Shown here piece after piece: positions 26,600 to 49,148 of a stretch of 54,905 nucleotides of DNA (positions are counted from its first letter, which is position 1; each line of letters opens with the position of its first letter). The notes beneath the pieces are model-generated. The model was given only the letters and a program-made list of their open reading frames with translations, was not told where the DNA came from and did no database searches. This DNA comes from an uncultured delta proteobacterium. GTDB lineage: Bacteria > Desulfobacterota > WTBG01 > CAIYCZ01. Location: assembly GCA_963803975.1 (NCBI GenBank), contig CAWDOY010000057.1, positions 1-54,905 on the forward strand. Direction: 5' to 3'. The position numbers and the translations under genes are program-made.

Positions 26600-28977
26600 C
26601 TATTTCACAAATATCCCGAAGAGCATCCTTGGTGTAGCATTCACTGGTCCATGCATGACTGACTTACCGTTCATGTCTATGTCTTCCAACTTATAATAGT
26701 AGGTCTTTCTATTTCTTACCTCTGTATCTATAAATTCGTATGATGCACCATTTGTGGGTGATCCTTTGGCTGGGATTAATGCAGTATTTATTTTAAAATA
26801 TTCCCCGTTCTTTTTATCAGAACGGTACATATTGAATTCGGCGTTGTCCAGTTCGCTTGCAGTGCCCCACTGTATAGAAACAGAGCGGTCACCGGGCACA
26901 GCAATAAATTCAGTAATGGTGACAAGAACTGGGGGCACGGTAGTGGTCGTCGTTGTCGTACCAGTAAACTCTACGATACCTTTCCATACGCCTTGATCTC
27001 CAGCACAGAAAATCGTGTGATCATCAGTAAATCTGTTTGATACTATAATTGAGCCTATATAAATATCTTGCCCTAAGCCTGTCGTGTCCAAGGTTTCCCA
27101 CGTTCGTCCTCCATCTCGTGACAGTGCGATAAGATGTGTGATCCTGTATAGGTACTAAGGAAAAGGGTTCGGTCTTGCTCAAACGATGGTGAAATTCCTA
27201 TCGCTGATGCATCGCGGGGATATATTTGCTGCCAGTTTGCTCCGGCATCTGTAGAACGATACGTACCTTGAGAATATACGCTTGCAATGATTGTCCTATC
27301 ATTTGCAAAGTCAGGAGAAACCGCCAGTGCAGAAATTGATGGTCCCAAATAGCCCGGGGTTACTGGCAGACCTTGTTTTGCAGCTACCCAGCTTGTGCCG
27401 CTATTGGTCGATTTAAAAACTCCTCGATTATTACAGCCGGCAAAAAGTGTCTGATCGTTTACATGGTCAGGTGATATTTCAATTTTATTTATTGCAGGAT
27501 CACGTAAGCCCTCACTCGATTGAATCCATGAAATACCAGCATCAGTGGATTTATGAACACCACTGTTACCAGCTATAAAAAGAGTCTGATCAATAGTATA
27601 ATTGGGAGAAATTGCAATGTCCCACCATGCTGTAAACGGTAGGCCATTATCAATCCTGAGCCATGAAATCCCGCCATCTGTTGATTTGTGTACATAATAT
27701 TCATTCCAGCTTGCGGCAAAGATGGTCCGATCACTACTATAATCAGGGGACAGAGCTATAATTCCACCCACATTGCCGCCCCGATTTGACCATTCTTGCT
27801 CATTGCTTGTGATCTGGAATACATCATTTCCGTCAGCACCCGCCAGAAGTTCATATGAACCACCGGTTTCCTGATATATCGCTAATGAGGATAAACGCCG
27901 AGGGATGTTCATGTTGCCATTCGCTATATGCCACGAGGTCCCGCCGTCTTTTGTTTTGAATAGTCCGGGACCGTCTTCGTTAACGCCAAAACCGGCAAAC
28001 ACTGTCCCATCAGTTGCGTACTCGGGTGAAATGCAAAGAGACTGCACCCATTCCCGCGGCAGTCCTCCCGCACATGGAAGCCAATTAGTGCCACCGTCTG
28101 TTGATTTCAGCACTTCTCCCGGGATCGTGCCGCCAAAGATGGTCTGGTCAGCAGAAAAAAGAGGAGAGATCGCAAAACTTGCGATACCGTAGCTGCCGAT
28201 GATATTCCAGGTTAGACCCCCATCTGTTGATTTATACGCCGGTCCATTCCATAATCCGAAGAGCACTGTTTTATCTGCAGCATAGTTCGGTGAAATCACT
28301 AAAGCCGTTGGATAGTCATTTCCGGGAAAGCTTAAAACACTTAGCCATCCCATCTCACTGTTTTCTGATTTAAAAATTCCTGAATCTGTTCCGGCAAACA
28401 GAGTATTGTCGTTTTTAAAATCCGGAGATACCGCAAGAGATACAACGCTTAAATCTGTAAGACCATTATTCTGTGCCGACCATGTCAACCCGCCATCAGT
28501 AGACACCGCAATTCCTTCATCCCACGTGCTCCCGCCAAACACCGTCAGGTCATCGGCATAATTGGGAGATACTGCAACAGATGAACATCTTATAGGTGCA
28601 TTGGCAGTGTGCCAAGCAATACCCCCATCAGTTGACTTTAACAGGCCATCGCTGTGTCCGGCAAAAATAGTCTGATCCGTCAGAAAGCTCTTTGTCATAG
28701 CAAGATCCTGGGCATAGTAAGGACCATATGAGAATAAATTTAGCCATGTTTCCCCACTGTTTGTGGATTTAAAGACACCAGCACTTGTTGCAATAAAAAT
28801 AGTATGATCAATCTTATATGCAGATGAGATTTGTATATCTATTATCTCTCCACCATAAAGGCCTTCTGTTGTCCATGCAACAGGGACAGTGGGTTCTGCT
28901 GACCATGCAGCAAAATTTAAAAACACCGGTACTATCAAACTAAGTATAATGATTGCAGAAATCATCCTGTTTTTCAT
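26600..28977 (-). CDS. Secreted Asp-box (BNR)/sortilin-like beta-propeller protein with Thr linker and C-terminal FN3-like domain (frameshift ~27100)
   Basis: Signal peptide and about 12 repeats of SP-Y--D-T-FAG...GVFKSTDGG-TW. ORF 26600..27091 supplies the C-terminal ...ATPRMLFGIFVK domain. Confidence 0.8.
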
Positions 28978-36509: not shown

Positions 36510-36534
36510 GTTACACAAATTATTATTAATATTG

Positions 36535-36625
36535 TTCCCGAGCCGTATTTTCTAAAGCTTCTGCTATGAAAAGCGGCCGATGGGTATAAGTCGAAAGATT
36601 TAAGCCTCCCGTGTTTGGAAAGGGA
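36535..36625 (+). ncRNA. Moco-class riboswitch aptamer 5 (P3-less)
   Basis: TCCCGAGCC...TCTAAAGC-GCTATGA...GGCC...TCGAAAGA...GCCTCCCGTGTTTGGAAAGGGA. P1 covaries (TCCC/GGGA versus CTCC/GGAG). Confidence 0.88.
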
Positions 36626-36642
36626 TTATAGAATATAATTAT

Positions 36643-36685
36643 AAAGGCCAGCTTTCCACATGCGGAGGTTGCCTTTTTGTTTTTT
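36643..36685 (+). terminator. Riboswitch 5 terminator
   Basis: AAAGGCCAGCTTTCC/GGAGGTTGCCTTTTT imperfect stem plus U-tract. Confidence 0.7.
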
Positions 36686-36734
36686 AAAAAATGGTTACAT
36701 TATGAACTGCGTATAGCCAGATACCAGTATAAAT

Positions 36735-36823
36735 TCCCGAGTCGTATCTTCTACAGCTTCGCTATGAAAAGCGGCCAAAGGGTTTAAGTCGAAAGATTTA
36801 AGCCTCCCGTGTTCGGAAAGGGA
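36735..36823 (+). ncRNA. Moco-class riboswitch aptamer 6 (P3-less, tandem with 5)
   Basis: Near-duplicate of aptamer 5: TCCCGAG...GCTATGAAAAGCGGCC...TCGAAAGATTTAAGCCTCCCGTGTTCGGAAAGGGA. Confidence 0.88.
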
Positions 36824-36838
36824 TCACCGGCAATTGAT

Positions 36839-36877
36839 AAAGGCCAGCCTTTCCTTTGTGGAGGTTGGCCTTTTTTA
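36839..36877 (+). terminator. Riboswitch 6 terminator
   Basis: AAGGCCAGCCTTT/GGAGGTTGGCCTTTTTT. Confidence 0.8.
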
Positions 36878-37004: not shown

Positions 37005-38711
37005 ATGAAAAAAAGACTTTTACTGGGAAATTGTTTATTGCTTCTGGCATTGATGTTCGTGCCATTTGTCACTGCTCAAGCTGCCATCTTGCAGGTCGGA
37101 CCCAGCTGGCGGGAACCCCGTATGCAGATATTCAGAGCGCAATTACTGCAGCTGCTGACAATGATGAGATATGGGTGGAACAGGGAACCTATGCGCTTAC
37201 CGCCATGATAAATGTAAATAAAAAGGTGGCTATCTATGGCGGCTTTTACAGGTTCAGAAACAGCAAGGATCACAGAGGAACTGGGTAACCAACGTGACCA
37301 CGGTGGATGGCCAGAATACGGTCGGCTGTTTCTATACCACGGCAGATGCAACCATAGACGGGTTTACCATCACCAGAGGCTATAAAAAACTGGCAGGCGG
37401 TGATGAGGACAAGGGTGCCGGCATTCTGAACGGCGATCCTTCTCTCAGCTGCTCCTCCTGCTGATGCACCTGATCTCACGGTGGCAAACTGCATTTTCTA
37501 TCGCAACGAGTCCTTTCTGAAATCAGGCGGCGCATCTGTAACTTCACGAGCGCCGGGAACCTCACGATAACCGCAAGCACCTTTACTGAGAATTTTGGCG
37601 ATGAACAGGGCGGAGCAATCAGGGTGCAAAAGGGCACTACAACCATAACGGATTGCATCTTTACCGGTAACAAAATCAAAAAGGATACCGGCGGGGTTGG
37701 AGGTGCTATTGCTATCAGTAACACTGCCGGTGCAGCCGTCATTGAAAGATGCACATTTACCGGCAATAAATGCCGGGATGCCGGCGCAGTGAGCGCTGAT
37801 GTCAATGCTACTTTTACACGATGCATCTTTGCAAATAATAATCCAGTCATCGCAGCACCCCGCTACGGCACTATTGGATCCCGTGGAGACCTGCCCTGTC
37901 ACCGTAACAAACTGTCTCTTTTACGGCAACAGGGTTCAGTATGGCGGCGGCATTGCCATCAACGGCAGCGGCACCAATGAAAACTTAAATGTCATTAACT
38001 GCACATTTGCAGACAATATCCTTGTGGGTACCGGCGCTACCGGTGGTGCAATCTATTCCCTAAAGACCGGAGGAACAGCCTTCAATGTAACAAACTGTAT
38101 TCTGTGGGGAAATACTAACACAAATGAAATTGCCGGTGCTACCGGCTTTCTGGCTCCAACAGTAAGCTATACTGATACTGACCAGACCGGCTATGCCGGC
38201 AGCAATGGAAACATCAATCAGGATCCGCTGTTTGTCGATCCTATCAACTCTGATTTTCATATTCAGGGAATCTCGCCGTGCATCAGTAGCCGCAACCAGC
38301 ACCGGGGCACCCATTAATGACTTGGAAGGCACGCTGCGGCCCCAGGGTGTAGCCTTTGACATGGGCGCTTTTGAATATATTCTGGACCCGACCGCTATCA
38401 CCCTTTCCTCCTTTGATGCGAAGCCGGGCAATCACAGTGTAACGCTGATATGGGTAACCGAGACTGAGATTGACAATGCCGGGTTTAACATCTACCGGGC
38501 GGGTGCTGATGGCGAATTCGTGAAGATAAATGCTGAGATAATCCCTGCACAGGGAACCGCAGCAAGCGGAGCAGCCTATCAGTTTGTGGACAGCGACGTG
38601 CAGAACCGGCAGACCTATTCCTACAAGCTGGAGGATGTGGATCTGAACGGCACAGCAACCCAGTACGGGCCGAAAACGGCGACCCCACGGTTTATCTATT
38701 TATTTAAATAA
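37005..38711 (+). CDS. Secreted right-handed beta-helix (pectin lyase-like, choice-of-anchor Q-like) protein with C-terminal FN3-like domain; multiple frameshifts
   Basis: Signal peptide; YADIQSAI...WVEQGTY; repeated C-F--N...GGAI; NCILWGN; NINQDPLFVD...SPCI; DLEG--RPQG-AFDMGAFEY; C-terminal ...ATPRFIYLFK. Confidence 0.8.
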
Positions 38712-38772
38712 ACCGGGGCCGTTTCGCATTAATGTCCTATTCACGACTATTGACAGATAAGGAGATCATGCC

Positions 38773-38892
38773 ATGGAGCGAAAACATGAATACGAAGCAC
38801 CAAAAGTAATCACCTATTCAGAGGATGAGATAGTTGACATGCTCGGACCGGCGCAGACCTGTTCACCAAGCCCGTGTCCGACCTATCAGTAA
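38773..38892 (+). CDS. 39-aa RiPP-precursor-like peptide MERKHEYEAPKVITYSEDEIVDMLGPAQTCSPSPCPTYQ
   Basis: AAGGAG RBS 8 nt upstream, YxxPxV leader motif, Cys/Pro/Ser C-terminal segment, downstream hairpin. Below the ORF-track size cutoff. Confidence 0.7.
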   Translation: MERKHEYEAPKVITYSEDEIVDMLGPAQTCSPSPCPTYQ

Positions 38893-38924: not shown

Positions 38925-38974
38925 TAGTTAGAGTTATGCCCTATTCGCACATGGGTATAACTCTAACTATTTTT
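38925..38974 (+). terminator. Long hairpin/terminator after the peptide gene
   Basis: TAGTTAGAGTTATGCCC/GGGTATAACTCTAACTA 17-bp stem (one G-U) followed by TTTTT. Confidence 0.75.
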
Positions 38975-39019
38975 ATTGCAGAGGCATTTCTGTAATTAAT
39001 TCTCAAGACAGGGGGTTTT

Positions 39020-39990
39020 ATGAAGAAATATATACTACTATTGCTCATGCTATGTGCCGTGCTCTTTGCAGCACATAATGCTGCGGCTGAAACAATCAGC
39101 TGCAACGACCACCGCTGATGTTTTTATTGATCAGTACGAACCAACTATGAACTTCAATGATAAAACCAGATTGCTTATCTCATACCATCCTACAAAAGGC
39201 ATAGCACGGGGGCTTTTGAAATTCGACATCCCGTCTTGCATCACCGCTTCACAGATTCAAAGTGCCAATCTGTATCTGTCGAGCTCTGCTCATACTGGCA
39301 GTGGTAATGCTATTAATATTAGCATCCATGCACTCAATGCCTCCTTTAATGAGGCAACAGATACATGGAATAGCCTCAGCGGGGGTAACTATGATGCCAG
39401 CGTCTTCTCCTCAGGCTCTCTTCCTTCTGGCAATGCCTGGAAAACCACTATTAATGTAACAACACTTCTCGCGGGAAATCTGCATAAAGCACGAACTAAT
39501 GGTGTGCTCATTAAGCTGACTACGGAAGGACCGATAAATTATACCAGCATATTGCATCACGGGAATGCGATGATGCTTCTAACCCGAATTATGTTGCAGC
39601 TGACGAACCCCCACGTCTGGAGATTAGCCTGAAAACTGATTCTGATTCTGATGGGGATGGCGTTCTTGATTCACAGGATAATTGTCCCAATAAATGTAAT
39701 AGTGAGCAGCATGATTCAGATAATGATGGTTATGGGGATGTTTGTGACCCAACCCCCGGTTGTGCTTCTCCACCAAATTGCGGAGGATGTGGCTCACCAC
39801 AATGTTGTGAGGTAGAGTGCTCATTAACAGATTCTGATAGTGATGGTATTCCTGACTGTGCGGATAACTGCCCGTGCTAATTGCAACGTTAATCAAGCTT
39901 GATGCAGACGGCGATGGCATAGGTGATGTGTGCGATACAACACCAGGCTGCGGTGGATGCGGCGCACCGCAGTGTGAGCAGCAGTGTTAA
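39020..39990 (+). CDS. Secreted DNRLRE-like domain protein with thrombospondin type-3 repeats and Cys-rich tail (frameshifted)
   Basis: ATG 39020 signal peptide; ADVFID...ARGLLKFDIP...ASRE; DSDGDGVLDSQDNCP, DGIGDVCD; ends PGCGGCGAPQCEQQC. Confidence 0.75.
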
Positions 39991-40033
39991 TAGATAAACG
40001 AGGAGTAATTAATAAAGATAGTGAACAGATGAC

Positions 40034-43000
40034 ATGAAAAAATTGCTATCAATGCTGCTGTTTATTGCAGGGCTTTTGTTGCATAACGTTGCTGCAGCGG
40101 AAACGTATAACTGTGCTGCAACGGCTGATGTGTATATTGATCAGAAGACACCCGCGACAAATTTAAATGATAAAACCCGACTGGTTATTTCCTATCATCC
40201 CACGTATGGCATCGCCCGGGGGCTGTGGAAGTTTAACATCCCCGGCACCATCGACGCAGCGCAGATTGAGAGCGCAACGCTGCATGTATCCGGCTCTATT
40301 CATACCGGCGGGGGCAATGCCATTTCTGTATATTGTTATGCTCTCAATTCCCCGTTTGATGAAAATGCCGAAACCTGGAACACCCACAGTGGCGGAGACT
40401 ATGATGCCGGCGTGTTTTCTTCCGGTTCTCTTCCATCGGGCAATGACTGGGAAGCCGCCATCGATGTAACCACGCTGGCGAAAGGCAATCTGGCCAAACT
40501 GCGTGATAACGGCATGCTCATGAGGATACAGCAGGAAGGTCCGACCAAGGAATACCAGAACATAGCTTCCCGGGAATCTACTGACCCGGAAGATTTTGCC
40601 GCGTATCTTGAAATTGTGTATTCTGTCCCATCATCAACCACTACCACAATGCCGGTGAGCAGTTCCAGCTCGTCAAGCAGTTCGAGCTCATCTACCACAA
40701 CGGTGCAGCCAACTACGTCCAGCAGCACGTCATCGCTGATACCGACAACCACGACCACATTGCAGCCGACGACCTCAAGCAGCACCACGTCGATGATACC
40801 GACAACCACGACCACGGTGCAGCCGACAACGTCCAGCAGCACCACGTCGATCATGCCGACAACCACGACCACGGTGCAGCCGACAACATCCAGCAGCACC
40901 ACGTCGCTGATGCCGACAACCACGACCACGGTGCAGCCAACAACGTCCAGCAGCACCACGTCGATCATGCCGACAACCACGACCACGTTGCAACCGACAA
41001 CATCAAGCAGCACGTCGTCACTGGTGCCGACAACCACAACCACGGTGCAGCCGACTACGTCCAGCAGCTCAAGCTCGTCCAGCACTACAACGACCGCCAT
41101 CATCACGACAACCAGTTCAACTTCATCCACCACGACTATTGTTTATCAGTCGTATACGTGTGACTGTAACGGCTGATGTGTATATTGATGAGATTGATCC
41201 CGCACTAAATTTCAATGACAAGACGAGATTGCTTTTCTCATTCCATCCCACAAAGGGGAAAGCCAGGACGCTTTTGAAGTTTGATATCCCTATCAGCATC
41301 GAAGCACCGCAAATTCAAAGTGCAGTGCTGCATCTCTCAAGCTCCGGACATACTGGCGGAGGTAATGCTGTTTCTGTTAATAGCCATGCACTCAACTCGC
41401 CATTTGGTGAAAATGCTGAAACCTGGAACACCCACAATGGCGGCGATTATGATAGTTCCTTGTTTTCAACCGGCGCGTTGCCCGCAGGCAATGCCTGGAA
41501 AACTACCATTGATGTAACAACACTTCTCACGGTGAATCTGAACAAAATAAGGGATAATGGTATTCTTATTAAGCTGGCGGCTGAAGGGCCGGATAAATTA
41601 TACCAGAATATTGCATCACGGGAGTGCGATGATACTTCAAACCCCAATTATGTTGAAGCAGACGAACCTCCGCGTCTTGAAATTTACCTGTGCGGTTCCG
41701 GCATCTACGACAACTACGGGGCTGCCGATCAGCAGCTCAAGCTCTTCCAGCAGCTCAAGTTCATCAACCACAACGGTGCAGCCGGTAAGCAGTTCCAGTT
41801 CGTCCAGTAGTTCAAGCTCATCAACCACCACGGTGCAGCCGGTGAGCAGCTCAAGCTCGTCCAGCACTACAACGACCACCATCATCACGACGACCAGTTC
41901 AACTTCATCCACTACGACTATTGTTTATCAGTCCTATACGTGCGACACGACCGCTGATGTTTATATTGATCAGGAGTCACCGACGACAAATTTCAATGAT
42001 AAAACCCGACTGCTTATTTCCTATCATCCGACAAAAGGCGCGGCCCGGGGGCTGTGGAAGTTTAACATTCCCGGCACCATCAACGCAGCACAGATCCAGA
42101 GCGCAACGCTGCATGTGTCAGGCTCTATCCATACCGGCGGGGGTACGGCCCTTTCTGTATATTGTTATGCTCTTAATTCCCCGTTTGCTGAAAATGCCGA
42201 AACCTGGAATACCCACAGTGGCGGAGACTATGATACCGGCGTATTTTCTTCCGGGTCCCTTCCATCTGGCAATGACTGGGAAGCGGCCGTTGATGTAACC
42301 ACGCTGGCGAAAGGCAATCTGGCCAAACTGCGGAATAACGGCATGCTCATGAAGAAACAGCAGGAGGGCCCGACCAAGGAATACCAGAACATAGCCTCCC
42401 GGGAAACTACTGACCCGGAAGATTTTGTCGCGTATCTGAAGATTGTCATTGCCTCAGCCGGAACCACGACAACAACGGCTACAAGCACAACATCGACGAT
42501 ATCGGTAACAACCAGCACAACCTCTGTTCCGGCAGTCACCACAACCACGATTCCGTTGCCTCCACCAGAATGTAATGCTGACGCTGACTGTGATGATGAG
42601 AAGTTTTGCAATGGGGCGGAACGATGTGTTCTGGGGCAGTGCCTTGCAGGAGATAGCCCCTGCAGCGAGGGGCAGGTATGCCGCGAAGATCTTAAACAGT
42701 GCCTCAGCATACTGAGAGTATCAGCTCGTTGTATTCCGCAAAGGGTCTTAAGGCCCTGGCTGCGCGATACCCGGTGTTTTTGGTTGCTGGTGTATTGTCC
42801 TGTAGGAAGCCATGTCAATTCACAGAGCACAATAATGATAACCGGGCCGGAAACACAGGCCGCAGGGGTAAAAGTGAATGAACAGCGGCAGTTGGTGAAT
42901 ATGGCCGGAATGCTCTGGGTGCCGGTGTGCGTGAAGTCTGATGCAACTACTGGCGCATGGAAGTTAAGTATTTCTACCGATGCAGATATCAGCGGAACGA

Positions 43001-43041
43001 TGGTTAATGAGGTGATTGAAGCTGATTTTACCGTGAGATAG
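40034..43041 (+). CDS. Secreted protein with three DNRLRE-like domains, Ser/Thr-rich linkers and a Cys-rich C-terminal module (two frameshifts)
   Basis: ORFs 40034, 41139 and 41557 join. Domains 1 and 3 are nearly identical. CNADADCDDEKFCNGAERC module. Confidence 0.8.
40695..41075 (+). repeat. 57-bp coding tandem repeat (about 6-7 copies; PTTTTTVQPTTSSSTTSIM)
   Basis: Visible 3-nt shift per 60-nt line gives period 57. Confidence 0.9.
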
Positions 43042-43080
43042 TATTAGTAAATAATATTATCAACATAAAGGACCTCTCAG

Positions 43081-44822
43081 ATGAAAAGAAAAATAATACT
43101 TGGACTTTGCCTTCTCTTTTTGTTGTTACTTCCTTACACAGTGAAGGCAGAAACAATTATTCTTTCCACTGATAAGGATACCTATATAGATAAGTATTAC
43201 CCTGCTCAGAACTTTGGACAGAAATGGAATGTGCTGGTCAGCGGCTCTCCAGTTTCAAAACTGGCTAATGGGTTATTCCACTTTGATTTTACTGCTCTTC
43301 CTGATACCGCGGTCATTAAAAATGCGAAATTAACGTTTCTTGTCCATGCCAATCATTCAACAACAAAGTATTTTATCCACCCTTGACAACTTTCTGGCAG
43401 GAAGATGCTGCTACATGGAATCTGTCTGAAACCGGAATAAATTGGGGGACACCCGGCGGAGATTATGACCCGGCTCTTTTTTGTGAAACCGCTCTGCCGG
43501 GAACAACGCCACAGTGGAGTGTGACGGACGTTACCTCCCTTGTCAGTGACCAGCAGGGTTATCTAAGACAAGGCATTGCTGATAATGGACTTTTGATACG
43601 GGGAGACGCAGGATACAATAAAATTCTCTCGTCCGAGTTCAGCACCTATGACAACGCCATGACCTGCCACTCCTGCCATGGAACAAATGACCCTTCGCGC
43701 GACGTGGGCAAGTCAACAAACTGCGCTCAGTGCCACTCGCAGGGTGATATTCGACTTGCAGGAGAGCCGACACTGATCGTCGACTATGAGCCCATGCTGT
43801 TTGAGTTTGTGCAGGTATCGGATACTCATATAGGGAAATCACCTCAGCAGACAACTAATCTTATCAATGCAGTAACGCAGATAAATACCATAAACCCCGC
43901 ATTTGTGCTTTTCAGCGGAGACCTGACCGACAGCGGAAGCATTGAACAATATACCACCTTTAAAACAACGGTCTCTAATCTCTCAATGCCCTATTACTGT
44001 GTGCCGGGAGATAATGATATTGTTGACGGCGAGGGTGACTTGCAGCGCTACCGTGACCAATTGGGTAATGATTATTTTGCTCTTGATTACCAGGGTTTTA
44101 AATTTATCGGGCTCAATAACAACCTGTACCTTTCCCTTGATCAGACTCAGCGTCAATGGTTTGAGCAAGAGCTTCAGAAGGGGAAACCTGAAATTATTTT
44201 TGCCCATAAGCCGCTTCTGGATTATGAAAACAACTTTGTGCCTTTTGCCGACGCACAACAGTTGTTAAATCTTTTTGATGCTTATGATGTGGTTATGTAT
44301 ATGAGTGGTCATTGGCATGAGTCAGCAGAATATACCAGCAATAACACGCACCATATCTGGTGCGATAATTTAAGTTTTGCCCACCTGGGAGACCGGTATA
44401 ACCTTTACCGGGTATATGCAGACCACATCGCGCTCTATCATGTGGACTTGCGCGATGGTTCTGAGACTTTTGCAGGTAGTTTTCCCATAAACCGGGCATC
44501 TACCCTTGTTACATTATCATCTTTGCAGGCAATACCTTCAAATCGCAACGTTACCATACGCTGGGTTACCGAGTCTGAGATAGATAATGCAGGCTTTAAT
44601 ATTTACCGCACCACAACGAATGGTGAGACCGTCAAATTAAATAAAAATATGATTGCGGCACAGGGATCCGCAGCAGCCGGGGTGGTATATGAATTTGCGG
44701 ATACCACGGTTGAAAACCGCAAGACATATTCATACCAGCTGGAAGACATTGACATAAACGGTATGGCGCGATTACATGGGCCGGTAACAGCGACGCCGCG
44801 GCTTCTGTACATATTTAAATGA
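43081..44822 (+). CDS. Secreted DNRLRE-like + diheme + calcineurin-like metallophosphoesterase + FN3-like C-terminal domain protein (frameshift ~43383)
   Basis: DKDTYID; CHSCH and CAQCH; SDTH, GDLT, PGDND, AHKP and SGHWH; ...ATPRLLYIFK. Confidence 0.8.
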
Positions 44823-44832
44823 GAGGGTACCA

Positions 44833-46414
44833 GTGAAAAATAATTGCTGCTGGCGCGGCAAAACAGTGACGGGAACTGCGCTGCTGCTCTCTCTCTTGTT
44901 TCTCTCTGGATTTTTCGGCTGTACGCCATTTTCAGATGATGCTCAGGTTCAGGTAGCTACTGCTGTTAATGAGTTTAAGCCCTTTTCTTCGCCGCCCCGC
45001 GCTGTTGCCTGCGGCCCCTATTCGCTGAACGTGAAGACTGACAGCGCGGTTATCGCCTGGGAAGAAAAAATCTTGGGTGATACCCTGCGGCATGTAGAGG
45101 TGTCCGGTTTCCGGGCTTTCAGCGGGGACAGAATATGTTTACCGGGTTAATGGCGCTAAAAAAGATGGCCGCCTGGTAACCGCCCCCGCAGACGCTACAC
45201 CCTTCAGTTTTTTTATTGTGAGTGATACGCGCGGCGGTGCCGCAATAGCCAGCCAAATCTCAGAACAGATGATTGCCCTTGATCCTGAGGCCGCATTTGT
45301 TATCCATGCCGGGGACATGGTAATGGATCAGGACAGCCAGGAAAGCTGGCAGGCTGACTGGTGGATCCCGCTGTCAGACCTTCTGCTTAATTTTTCAGTG
45401 TATCCTGTCATGGGTAATCACGAGGAGGGCTCTGCCTGGTATCCCCGCTACTTTTCAAGCCTTGGCGGGAAAGGAATTAACTATTCATTTAACCGGGGGC
45501 GGGTCCATGTCGTGGTCCTGGACGTAAATCAGGAAAGCTTCATCACCGGGGAATTTCTGGAGTGGCTTACCAATGACCTGCAAGAACACCGGGATGCTGA
45601 TTTCATTGTGGTCTGCCATCATCTGCCGGCGTATGCGGCTAATCCGGACGGTGATAGCGGCACCGGTTATATTCAGGACAAACTGGTGCCGCTCTATGAG
45701 CAGTACGGGGTCAAACTGGTGCTGAGCGGCGACGTGCACTGCTATCAGCATAACCTGAAAAATAATATCCACTACCTCATTTCCGCAGGCGGCGGCTCAC
45801 GGCTCTATGACCACGGGCTCCCGCTTGAAGGCATGACCCTGGGCTTGTCTAAGAGCTACAACTTCATCCGTTGCCGGGTGCAGGATAGATTGATGCAGGT
45901 CACTGCCCATGATATTGCCGGTGATGTGCTTGATAACTTTGAGCTTGCTGCAGACAGTTCCTCCGAGATTACCGCCCGGATCATCGCTCAGTCAGACAAG
46001 TCCGAGGTGCAGCGGGGTGAGCAATTCAGGACTGATTTTTTTATCGAAGGCGCGGCTGACCTGGATACGGTTTCTTTCACCCTGGAATACTATAAAGACA
46101 CACCGCCCAATGCCCTGCTTACGGTCGTGGATGCAGAGCCCCTGACTGAAGGAGTGCAGATCGAGGAAGGATTGCTGGGCGGCGTGGTGACCGCCAATAG
46201 TGCGGATAACACCAAAGGAATAATTACCTATGGAGAAGACAGAATAGGCGGCCTTTCCGCTTCTAAAGTAAAGGTTGCCTCAATACTGTTTACCGTGCCG
46301 GAAGATGAACCGATCACAGCATTCTATCTTGTTCCAAAATTTTTTCTGCATGACACATCCGGCAGAGAAATTCCCAGCTTTATGGGTGGAGTCAAGGTCA
46401 CCATAAAAAAGTAA
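44833..46414 (+). CDS. Purple acid phosphatase-like metallophosphoesterase lipoprotein with cohesin-like C-terminal domain (frameshifted)
   Basis: Lipoprotein-like signal (LSGFFGC); GPY...VIAWE; SDTR, HAGDMV, MGNHE, CHHLP, SGDVHCYQ and SAGGG. Confidence 0.75.
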
Positions 46415-46432
46415 ATAATCCGGATCAGCGCA

Positions 46433-48115
46433 ATGATTGACATAATGAGATCTAAAAACAGCTGGAAACATATTGCCGGCAGCCTGCTGCTCGCAGGATG
46501 TCTGCTTCTGAGCTTCGCCGGTCTTCCCGGCGCTGCAACCTATCAGTGTGTCCAGGATACCTATATTGACACCGCATACCCGGATGATAATTTCGGCGGC
46601 GGCGACCGCCTGCTTATCTCCAACACCGCCAATCCTACCCGCGTATTGATGAAATTCGCCATTCCCTCGTGGGTCGATACCGCAAACATCAGGCAGGGAT
46701 CACTGGTTTTCTACAGTGCGCCGTGGACCGGCGGCGCAGGCGGCACCGTTGATTTTGACGTGTATGCTCTGACCCGTATATGGACGGAAGGGTTTCCTGA
46801 TAACGGCGCTACCTGGAACCAGTATACTTTTGATACGGACCGAAGAAAAAACCAGTGGACCAGCCCGGGCGGAGATTATGATGAAAGCCTGCATGCAGCG
46901 GGCACGTTTCCCTCAGGCAATGACTGGGGACCTTTTTCCATTGATGTAACTGAATTGTTAAAAAAACGGCTGAGCAATCTGCGCGACTATGGTTTTCTGG
47001 TCAGGCACCCGCGTGAAGATGCGGCGGGAGGCTGGCAGAATTTTGCGAGCAGGGATTCAACCGGGTATGACCCGCCCCGGTATCCGCAACTGGAAATAGA
47101 GTTTATTGAGCCCCCGCCGAACACACCGCCTGATGCACCAGCAAGTCCCGCGCCGGGTAACAATGAAACCGGCGTGCTGCTGACCCCGACGCTAAGCTGG
47201 AGCGGAGGCGACCCGGACCCGGACAATACCCTGACCTATGATGTGTACTTCGGCCTTAAGGGAGCGCTGACCCTTGTCTCTTCCGGCCAGGTAGCGGCCA
47301 CATATCTGCCCGGCGCGCTGCAGCTTGCTGCCACCTATGAATGGAAGGTGGTTGCCCGGGATAATTACGGCGCTGAAACTTCCGGCCCGATGTGGAGCTT
47401 CAGTACCATTACGAGCGGCATAGCATCAGTTTCCCCGGCAAGCGGGTCGCCTTTCTATTTTCAGGATAAAAACTATTTTCCCCGTCCTGTTCTGATGAAT
47501 ATCAAGGGCGCAGGGACCGCCTTCCGGTTTTCGCAGTCAAAAGTTTCATTCAATGATGAAGGTATCAGGGTCCTGTTCTGCCTGCCGGTTTCGCCGACCG
47601 AGCTGTGGGCAGCAGTAATTATTGAGGAAACAGCACTACTCGGCCTGCATGATGTTATTGTTACCACCGGAGAAGAAACAGCAGTCGGCATCGCGCTCTT
47701 CGAGGTTAAAAAATGCTGGCGCGGTACTGAACAGATAACCGTGAAGCACAATGCTGATTCTGCGGCAGTGCAGCTGCGCGGGCTGCCCATGTACAGCTTC
47801 AAGAACAAGGAATCGATTCGTTTTTCGGACATCGTTGAAAAAGCCGGCATCCCCGCCCATCCTGAAAACTATTTTTACAACCTCATATCAAATGATAATT
47901 ATTCCCTGGAACGGGGTATAATCCTCGGCGGCTGGTCAACAGGACTGCCTACCTGGGCGGACATGCAAAAAGGGTATCTCTATCTCACAAAATCGTCCGG
48001 TCTGCTTGCCGGATGGGACCCTGAGACGGTACCGGGACGAATCGGGAGCAGTTACAATGCGAAATTCATGGAAGGAGGCATAATTGAAGTTCGGGAACAG
48101 GATATCATCAAGTAA
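46433..48115 (+). CDS. Secreted DNRLRE-like + FN3-like multidomain protein
   Basis: Signal peptide; QDTYID...GGDYD...NFASRD...PQLEI; PTLSWSGGDPD...YDVYFG...YEWKVVARD. Confidence 0.8.
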   Translation: MIDIMRSKNSWKHIAGSLLLAGCLLLSFAGLPGAATYQCVQDTYIDTAYPDDNFGGGDRLLISNTANPTRVLMKFAIPSWVDTANIRQGSLVFYSAPWTGGAGGTVDFDVYALTRIWTEGFPDNGATWNQYTFDTDRRKNQWTSPGGDYDESLHAAGTFPSGNDWGPFSIDVTELLKKRLSNLRDYGFLVRHPREDAAGGWQNFASRDSTGYDPPRYPQLEIEFIEPPPNTPPDAPASPAPGNNETGVLLTPTLSWSGGDPDPDNTLTYDVYFGLKGALTLVSSGQVAATYLPGALQLAATYEWKVVARDNYGAETSGPMWSFSTITSGIASVSPASGSPFYFQDKNYFPRPVLMNIKGAGTAFRFSQSKVSFNDEGIRVLFCLPVSPTELWAAVIIEETALLGLHDVIVTTGEETAVGIALFEVKKCWRGTEQITVKHNADSAAVQLRGLPMYSFKNKESIRFSDIVEKAGIPAHPENYFYNLISNDNYSLERGIILGGWSTGLPTWADMQKGYLYLTKSSGLLAGWDPETVPGRIGSSYNAKFMEGGIIEVREQDIIK

Positions 48116-49148
48116 AGAGCTGAGAAAAAATACCCGGCGCACGGGAGGTTTTTTATTAATCCTCGTCACGCTGTGCGTACTGTTGCACAGCGGCGCTGCA
48201 CAGGCGGAAAAGATAATCTGCCCGGCTGCGGCTGATGTATATATCGATGAATGGTACCCGGATGAGAATTTTAATTATAAGACACGGGTGGTGGTTGCAA
48301 CCAACAAGAATATCCACCATGGAATAGCACGGGGGCTATATTATTTTGATATTCCTGCCGACCTGGCGGCCGCCCGGATCAAGAGCGCAGCTATCTATCT
48401 TGCTTCATGCACAAACTGCGGCGGCGGCAACGGCGGAGTGGTGGGCTTTTATGCCCTGAATAAGCCGTTTGATGAGGCAGCTGATACCTGGAGCTCGCTG
48501 GAAGGAGGGGATTGGGATAATTCCATATATACACAGGCAACTCTCCCCAAGGGAAATGACTGGAACCAGGGGGTGAGTGGTCAACTTCCCCCGGATGCAA
48601 AGGGCTTTGATATTACCGTCCTCCTCCGGGACAACCTGAACAAGGTACGGACTAACGGCATCATGATGCGGTTTGTTGACGAGCACCAGGAACCATTCAC
48701 CCACCAGAACGTTGCCTCACGGGAGTCGCAGGACCCGCTTGATTTCCCTCCCCAGATAATAATTCAAACAGAGGAGCCGCTCTGCCCGGCAGAGGTCATG
48801 CTCGGAGAGGACCGGCAGGCACTTTCCCTGCTGCGGAAGTTCCGCGACCAAGAGCTCGCAAAAACTCCTGCGGGCAGAAAGTGCATTGCGCTCTATTACC
48901 GCCATGCTGCTGAAATCTCTACCCTGCTGGTCACTGATGAGGATTTAAGAAGGAAGACCTCCGCGGCGCTGCCGGTTCTGCTGGCAGCTGTCAGGTGCAG
49001 ACTTGAAAAGCGCCCGGCCGGTAATCTCCGCGATATGGATACTGCCCTCCATAATCTAATTAATTCGTTTATGGTAAAAGCCGGCCCGCAGCTGCGAAAG
49101 GATATTGCTGCCATAAACGCCGCCCTTTTTGCTGCAAAGGGACCGTGA
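48084..49148 (+). CDS. Secreted DNRLRE-like protein with CFI-box-CTERM-like C-terminal domain (start approximate)
   Basis: ADVYID...ARGLYYFDIP...QNVASRE; CPAE...LRKFRD-EL--TPAG--CI-LYY. Confidence 0.75.
   Translation: MKFGNRISSSKELRKNTRRTGGFLLILVTLCVLLHSGAAQAEKIICPAAADVYIDEWYPDENFNYKTRVVVATNKNIHHGIARGLYYFDIPADLAAARIKSAAIYLASCTNCGGGNGGVVGFYALNKPFDEAADTWSSLEGGDWDNSIYTQATLPKGNDWNQGVSGQLPPDAKGFDITVLLRDNLNKVRTNGIMMRFVDEHQEPFTHQNVASRESQDPLDFPPQIIIQTEEPLCPAEVMLGEDRQALSLLRKFRDQELAKTPAGRKCIALYYRHAAEISTLLVTDEDLRRKTSAALPVLLAAVRCRLEKRPAGNLRDMDTALHNLINSFMVKAGPQLRKDIAAINAALFAAKGP

Follow-up and report, generated by a model that had tools for sequence, protein, structure and literature searches.

A family of probable RiPP precursor peptides paired with exported proteins in Desulfobacterota: a possible sorting tag ligated by a PorU-like protease

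In a stretch of 54,905 nucleotides from an uncultured delta proteobacterium (hereafter the window), a 39-codon open reading frame lies 61 nt after the stop of a gene led by tandem Moco/W riboswitches. The question raised by this locus is whether so short a frame is a gene at all and, if it is, what its product serves. A sequence-only reading had proposed a RiPP precursor with a YxxPxV leader, modified by maturases encoded elsewhere and possibly acting as a metallophore under W/Mo limitation, and had looked to homologs, coding-type conservation and maturase genes beside the homologs as the evidence to seek. The features on which the present analysis builds are collected in Table 1.

Table 1. 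Features of the window around the precursor gene, including all three copies of the C-terminal domain (CTD). Comparisons are with linear polyphosphorylated peptides (LPPs; Popov et al. 2026, PMC13381572, as far as the accessible portions of that source extend).
Feature	Position	Strand	Basis or remark
Third window CTD, end of frame-broken BNR-repeat gene, no peptide after it	26600..26935	-	
Moco/W riboswitch pair in tandem, with a terminator-like site after each	36524..36873	+	riboswitches at 36524-36641 and 36723-36839
Upstream gene for exported beta-helix / choice-of-anchor-Q protein, at least 3 frameshifts here	37005..38711	+	L080 comparison
CTD, 108 aa, FnIII-like, starts PTAITLSSF, end of the upstream exported protein	38385..38711	+	profile and model
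Ribosome-binding site AAGGAG	38759..38764	+	8 nt 5′ of ATG; sequence
Precursor peptide gene, 39 aa	38773..38892	+	translation, copies, coding pattern
YEAPKV, predicted RRE-binding-type leader motif YxxPxV	38791..38808	+	role from PMC13381572
GPAQT, predicted leader end	38845..38859	+	cut site predicted from LppS cutting after T-1
Predicted core CSPSPCPTYQ	38860..38889	+	modifications predicted
17-pair hairpin and T-rich tail, likely intrinsic terminator	38925..38977	+	stem computation
Second window CTD, on metallophosphoesterase ORF, no peptide after it	44502..44822	+	

The frame translates exactly as first described and has a good ribosome-binding site, and its copies establish it as a real gene. 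The source genome of the window (G000; other G numbers denote related genomes) holds nine matches, seven of them full-length with the identical core, one truncated at its 5′ end, and one divergent and frameshifted. In 77 distinct near-identical coding sequences 32 of the 33 third positions are variable, against 8 first and 3 second positions, and pairwise codon differences are 38,738 synonymous versus 5,729 non-synonymous; the pattern that selected these sequences demanded core residues, so that the invariance of the core among them is partly by construction. At the syntenic locus of a relative (L080) the peptide is 100% identical within flanking DNA of 77-93% identity. The notion that the frame is a repeat or a regulatory leader could appeal to the lack of any Pfam or NCBIfam match to the window peptide, yet it is refuted in practice by the strong third-position bias, the ribosome-binding sites at the copies in G000, the number of cluster representatives and the operon context and cargo fusions described below, and we regard its chance as negligible. 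Both the homologs and the coding-type conservation that had been sought were found.

Profile searches recovered 437 proteins, with 393 representatives at 50% clustering, and the named members include Acidobacteriota, Myxococcota, Ca. Brocadia and Ca. Entotheonella. The peptide is present in 14 of 61 related genomes, which are Desulfobacterota / Thermodesulfobacteriota by their record titles, and in 12 of 401 genomes sampled from the phylum. Nine ordinary relatives of the window peptide had no match in NCBIfam, a PDB sequence search with the peptide profile gave no significant match, and no plasmid match was found. The leader residues Y, P, T, Y, G, P and A are each at least 90% conserved, as are Y7 and P10 across 93 family members. 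Of the 140 parsed members, a count that excludes two S74-repeat proteins and eight unparsed sequences, 133 have Ala at position -3 of the predicted cut site and 136 have Thr or Ala at position -1. The core that follows is variable, ranging in length from 4 to 49 aa; it opens with Cys in 74 of the 140 and lacks this Cys1 in 66, and only 53 have a second Cys as well.

Several family members depart from the common arrangement. Tandem precursor pairs with unlike cores occur in L137, L148, L151 and L152, upstream of the rSAM gene in L137, L148 and L151, and may mean that one operon processes two cores. Orphan members with leaders ending in GPANT, GPAHT or GPATT (G000 C53:108424, corresponding to L037:8308-8535 and frameshifted; L217:1998-2276; L212, L213 and L214) have long His/Gly-rich cores, lie apart from operons and CTD genes, and are better candidates for metal binding than the window peptide. 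Two proteins of 171 aa (P0064 and P0106) repeat YxxPxV-like leader motifs three times, in P0106 alternating with Peptidase_S74 (tail-fibre chaperone) segments. In Ca. Brocadia sinica a precursor copy appears at every third accession number (GAN32214, GAN32217, GAN32220), which suggests an alternating peptide/gene array like that on contig C20 of G000.

Co-transcription of the peptide with the riboswitch-led gene upstream is plausible from the layout of the locus, because the gap is short and a terminator scanner found no terminator within it. The tandem riboswitches appear to control the upstream cargo gene, with the peptide riding along. This cargo gene is intact in L080, where it encodes an exported beta-helix protein of 566 aa. 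Frame breaks are common throughout G000 (recBCD, the operon kinase, the 3′ end of the C25 protease and CTD genes among them), a pattern consistent with indel errors in the assembly.

Downstream of the peptide, the hairpin that had been noticed earlier is indeed present, its 17-pair stem with an 11-nt loop spanning 38925-38969 before TTTTTATT (z = -5.76; 0 of 200 shuffles as stable). Its arms are similar to those of the hairpin that follows the peptide's operon copy in relatives, where a related hairpin stands 3′ of the peptide in 8 of 14 operons. Within G000, hairpins of 10-17 pairs follow five of the eight peptide copies; for the three internal copies on C20 such a hairpin is not convincing. 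It had been suggested that the hairpin yields an excess of precursor over downstream genes. This fits the operon copies of relatives, in which a similar hairpin separates peptide and maturases, but at the present locus the hairpin more likely terminates the unit, since no maturase follows it within the window.

The maturases are encoded elsewhere, as had been supposed: the PqqD, SPASM and lasso cyclase families had no match among the 42 window proteins scanned, and contig C3 of G000 carries a row of genes for PqqD, RRE-rSAM-SPASM protein, HprK-like kinase, secreted C25 protease and SipW-like (S26-like) peptidase. In relatives the operon comprises the peptide, PqqD/RRE, an optional RRE-rSAM-SPASM gene, the HprK-like kinase, the PorU-like C25 protease and the SipW-like peptidase. 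The C3 operon is without the approximately 240 nt that hold the promoter and peptide in G001, with the hairpin kept, and the dispersed copies of G000 would consequently be processed in trans. The peptide gene adjoins PqqD, rSAM or kinase genes in G001, G003, G006, G007, G009, G010, G011, G012, G015, G016 and G023 and, in three other families, in G197, G212, G268 and G294; PqqD and RRE-rSAM-SPASM genes are thus among the neighbours of homologs in relatives. That the frame encodes a RiPP precursor of this operon can be stated with high confidence.

The C25 protease follows the peptide closely, being encoded in 12 of the 14 peptide-positive genomes, with a fragment in G011, and in one of the 47 others. 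An exception is G008, where nine peptides and 30 CTDs occur and no kinase, C25 protease or close rSAM was found in a genome 93% complete. One cluster in G015 has peptides, kinase, NTP transferase, peptidase and an MsbA-like ABC transporter without the C25 protease. The exporter varies, with ABC-2 pairs in G000, G003 and G023, the MsbA-like type in G197 and G015, and none universal; the NTP transferase PF14907 occurs only within or close to the clusters of G023, G212 and G015, with sub-cut-off pieces in G000. The peptidase has the Ser/His/Asp motifs in 11 of 12 sequences, and its matches to TIGR02228 and SipW are weak. The kinase gene of the G000 operon is frameshifted near its 5′ end. A scan of genome contigs for the kinase returned the same lineage and a single weak match, and all gene contexts read are from that lineage (Desulfobacterota / Thermodesulfobacteriota). 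A 292-aa gene before the C3 PqqD travels with efp/epmA and is probably outside the system; neither it nor this PqqD had a significant match in a PDB sequence search. Standalone PqqD genes without maturase neighbours lie at C19:38630, C19:48128 and C25:80044 of G000, the last being close to the operon PqqD (E 1e-24), and it could serve the dispersed precursors.

The first residue of the core is linked to the optional enzyme of the operon. A SPASM rSAM gene is adjacent at all 13 maturase-linked loci with a Cys1 core and at none of the six without Cys1, a match that amounts to about two to three changes on a C25 protease tree built without G268 and G011 (two changes; bootstrap two to three; one possible). 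G015 and G010 each have one Cys1 copy for which no close rSAM was found. Because the presence of the rSAM covaries with Cys at core position 1, Cys1, including that of the window core, is likely to be the target of the rSAM-SPASM enzyme. The best solved relatives of this enzyme are anSME, 5WGG and SkfB, its matches to ScmD/ScmE are weak, and its NCBIfam scores are far under cut-off (at best 141 bits vs 265). Ser2 or Ser4 of the window core is likewise the likely target of the kinase. Of 17 operon cores, 15 have Ser at +2 to +4, and Ser is at +3 in 38 of the 140 family members; in the window core position +3 is Pro.

The function first suggested for the peptide was that of a Cys-based metallophore produced when W/Mo is limiting. 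Two of the eight copies in G000 do lie behind Moco/W riboswitches, the predicted core has a free Cys in first position and another further on, and tupB/tupC-like tungstate ABC genes, the sole further hint of W/Mo besides the riboswitches, are directly upstream of the operon PqqD in three relatives (L056:12327-14046 in G006, L053:2200-3222 in G012 and L060:7458-9180 in G016). Against this, six copies with the identical core are without a riboswitch, and only 3 of the 28 metagenome copies with at least 2.5 kb of upstream sequence have one; the linkage is thus a matter of particular loci and not of the family, nearly half of which is without Cys1. To our knowledge tungstate and molybdate oxyanions are not typically bound by thiols, which also counts against the proposal, and we hold it to be very improbable. 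Six riboswitches of this class, including two tandem pairs, lie between 9324 and 36839 of the window, and G000 as a whole has 11 matches (C38 and C37 included), several before porin-like or exported proteins. Pro5, Cys6 and Tyr9 of the core stand at what we take to be the same positions as in the nickel hook of NiSOD, and the G003 peptidase weakly matches a model of the NiSOD maturation protease; the likeness of the core is probably a coincidence.

Outside the operon, the dispersed peptide genes lie beside genes for exported CTD proteins. The CTD had no match in Pfam or NCBIfam and nothing significant in a PDB sequence search. It starts with the motif P-T-(L/A/V)-(I/V)-x-L-x-x-F and is modelled as a seven-strand sandwich (pLDDT 91.8) with the PT just before strand 1, the best fold matches being FnIII domains; the surface-type residues W, T, E, F, Y, D, Y and G are invariant. 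By a crude signal-peptide heuristic, 78 of 87 CTD ORFs from loci other than those of G000 look exported, against 27 of 97 controls. Six of the eight peptide copies in G000 touch a CTD gene, compared with 0.75% of random positions, and among independent loci the contact is seen in three of five (p about 4e-6). Of 88 metagenome copies at 80 loci, which like the fusions below are kin and non-independent, 41 lie at most 400 bp after a CTD and 21 have a CTD at most 4.5 kb downstream, the others being in an operon (11), contig-limited (14) or without a CTD (1). In G197, G212 and G294 a CTD gene is in or beside the operon itself. The association is asymmetric, as G000 has about 40 CTD copies against eight peptide copies and most CTD genes are without a peptide neighbour; CTDs also occur, at one to six copies each, in 9 of 61 genomes without detected peptide or C25 protease. 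Further along the window (39020-49148) exported proteins with DNRLRE/CBM96 domains are encoded in succession, one of them ending in a CFI-box-CTERM tail; in L080 the first is a protein of 1138 aa with a Hint domain.

In some proteins precursor and cargo are one. An earlier search for long fusions with a broad profile, a weak test, gave none, and a targeted search gave seven, three ORFs of G212 and four further database proteins. Each runs from exported cargo through CTD, a Cys-led membrane helix and a basic stretch to an entire precursor. The cargo domains differ, the core is the same as or near-identical to that of the G212 operon peptide, and as far as can be told the fusions are from one lineage. 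Two of the three G212 junctions have no internal ATG. In the same genome several CTDs are followed by Cys/membrane tails of their own, from which the CTD itself may not be the cleaved signal. The pairing of genes together with the fusions makes it probable, in our judgement, that the peptide is functionally tied to the export of CTD proteins.

How this tie might work is suggested by the protease. The best solved relative of the C25 profile is PorU (E 2e-42 vs 1e-25 for gingipains), and its dyad is conserved, the His in all sequences and the Cys in at least 90%. According to the portions of the literature at hand, PorU cuts X/(GSA)(VLI), accepts peptides as nucleophiles if A-LPS is absent (PMC4560394), and makes its cut where a C-terminal sandwich domain begins (PMC4560394, PMC11285876). 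The residue after Thr in the CTD motif is Ala in 16 of 67 cases, Leu in 30 and Val in 15, and such a Leu/Val-rich position would seem a weaker fit to the small-residue rule of PorU.

A mechanism can be sketched from the observed gene family, its place in the operons of relatives, and its adjacency to and fusion with CTD genes. By LPP precedent, an RRE would bind the YxxPxV leader, the HprK-like kinase would phosphorylate Ser2 or Ser4 near the start of the core, and the Ser-His-Asp SipW-like peptidase would cut after A-x-T to free CSPSPCPTYQ. The rSAM-SPASM enzyme would, to judge from the covariation, modify Cys1, probably by a thioether. After a putative export of the matured core, the PorU-like C25 protease would cleave the cargo at the CTD boundary PT|(A/L/V)I, and the new N-terminal amine of the core could resolve the acyl-enzyme and thereby give a tagged or anchored surface protein. 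Pairing of a peptide gene with a cargo gene would supply roughly one core per cargo. Ligation of a trans-matured core onto cleaved CTD cargo is favoured because the C25 protease is closest to PorU, its dyad is conserved and PorU can ligate peptides; we rank it first among the readings considered, though with slightly less than an even chance. The covalent bond taken by itself deserves about the same or a shade less credence. More tentative still is the general proposition that a phosphorylated, rSAM-modified RiPP of ten residues might serve dozens of exported proteins as a sorting anchor, through a PorU-like transpeptidase outside Bacteroidota and a new FnIII-like sorting domain, and we are similarly guarded about a coupled supply of the core and its cargo, whether by gene neighbourhood or by C-terminal fusion.

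The same observations may be read without ligation. The matured core could be a free LPP-like peptide (a signal, or a component of matrix or biofilm) made alongside surface proteins, while the C25 protease either processes CTD cargo with a different nucleophile (a glycan or a lipid, for instance) or does no more than remove propeptides. According to the accessible part of PMC13381572, capsule loci contain the LPP genes and the cores are set free as linear phosphopeptides, and the G015 cluster without C25, the many CTD genes without a peptide neighbour and the nine genomes with CTDs and no detected peptide all accord with such a role. It leaves unexplained why unrelated exported cargo proteins should end in an in-frame precursor, and why C25 is retained in the maturase operon over four or more families, and on balance we find a free peptide rather unlikely. 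Gene pairing and fusions speak for coupling and are silent on chemistry, so that the modified core might also bind the CTD or C25 non-covalently, as chaperone, activator or export ticket, or report secretion load to a regulator. The invariant surface-type residues of the CTD could form a ligand site for it; the operons read are without a conserved regulator gene, and this role appears to us improbable, albeit less so than the metallophore.

The ligation reading, if true, would reveal a new route of tagging or anchoring surface proteins in Gram-negative anaerobes, a function of PorU-like C25 proteases beyond type IX secretion, and a candidate for a peptide ligase. Should ligation prove absent, the analysis still supplies a precursor family and its genetic context for LPP-like RiPPs and, through the natural fusions of cargo and precursor, connects the maturation of RiPPs with protein sorting. 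It also adds a multi-phylum precursor family that includes the anammox Ca. Brocadia, an unmodelled domain of sorting type and an optional Cys-directed rSAM. The sequence-only reading missed the tie to the kinase, the SipW-like peptidase, the C25 protease and the CTD of exported proteins. In the literature searched, which took in few subscription journals, no account of the precursor family or of a RiPP-C25 coupling was found, and there is a real chance that the system embodies a new principle.

Of the systems compared, lasso peptides of the paeninodin type share the YxxPxV leader, the discrete RRE, the HprK kinase and the NTP transferase, but the operons read are without a cyclase or B2 peptidase and the core is without Asp/Glu at positions 7-9. 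A lasso peptide was accordingly rejected: the G000 operon has no macrolactam cyclase or B2 peptidase, the sole PF13471 match in that genome being a 504-aa frame about 145 kb away, and the core has no Asp/Glu. Sactipeptides, ranthipeptides and anSME-type systems are alike in that an RRE-rSAM-SPASM enzyme tracks a Cys-containing core, a defining feature found here too, and the weak ScmD/ScmE matches recall the SynChlorMet cassette; they differ in that the scores here are under NCBIfam cut-offs, the rSAM is optional and a single Cys is conserved.

PorU and the T9SS (PDB 6ZA2), within the portions of the sources covered, resemble the present system in a C25 protease with a His/Cys dyad and in many exported proteins with a common C-terminal seven-strand beta-sandwich and a boundary motif of Thr followed by small/hydrophobic residues. 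The present protease is nevertheless under the PorU cut-offs (NF033707, 285 < 420 bits; NF052324, 223 < 450), the CTD matches FnIII with no T9SS CTD among the top fold hits, the natural acceptor of PorU is A-LPS and not a RiPP, and the host is a member of Desulfobacterota. The T9SS translocon SprA had no match in any of five genomes, and control genomes were also without a match.

LPPs are the closest known class, and what follows is confined to the accessible portions of the report and its supplement (PMC13381572). There the SipW homolog LppS makes an RRE-dependent cut after T-1 for which its Ser-His-Asp triad is essential, LppK phosphorylates S3, and the discussion states the biological role of LPPs to be unknown. 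In the supplement, peptidases from Brocadia form an outlying cluster to which no precursor is assigned, and Peptidase_C25 and Radical_SAM are column heads of the neighbour matrix; its file 2 contains no GPAQ or GPAH precursor. Shared with LPPs are the YxxP leader, the discrete RRE and HprK-like kinase in the cluster, the SipW-like (archaeal-type SpI) leader peptidase with Ser-His-Asp motifs, Thr at -1, a variable core with Ser near its start and, in some loci, an NTP transferase and MsbA-like ABC transporter. These last two are not core genes here, and the leader consensus is TY...GPA[QH][TA], unlike LxHQxIxFET in LPPs; of the full LPP pattern YxxPxVLxHQxIxFETxxS with Ser at +3, only YxxP and T-1 are in common. 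The present system further adds the SPASM rSAM and secreted C25, which are not core genes of LPPs, has dispersed copies beside cargo genes and fusions to cargo, and is found outside Bacillota. It may thus be described as LPP-like in its maturation and, by its leader consensus, Ser3 and NTP-transferase/MsbA genes, as distinct from LPPs.
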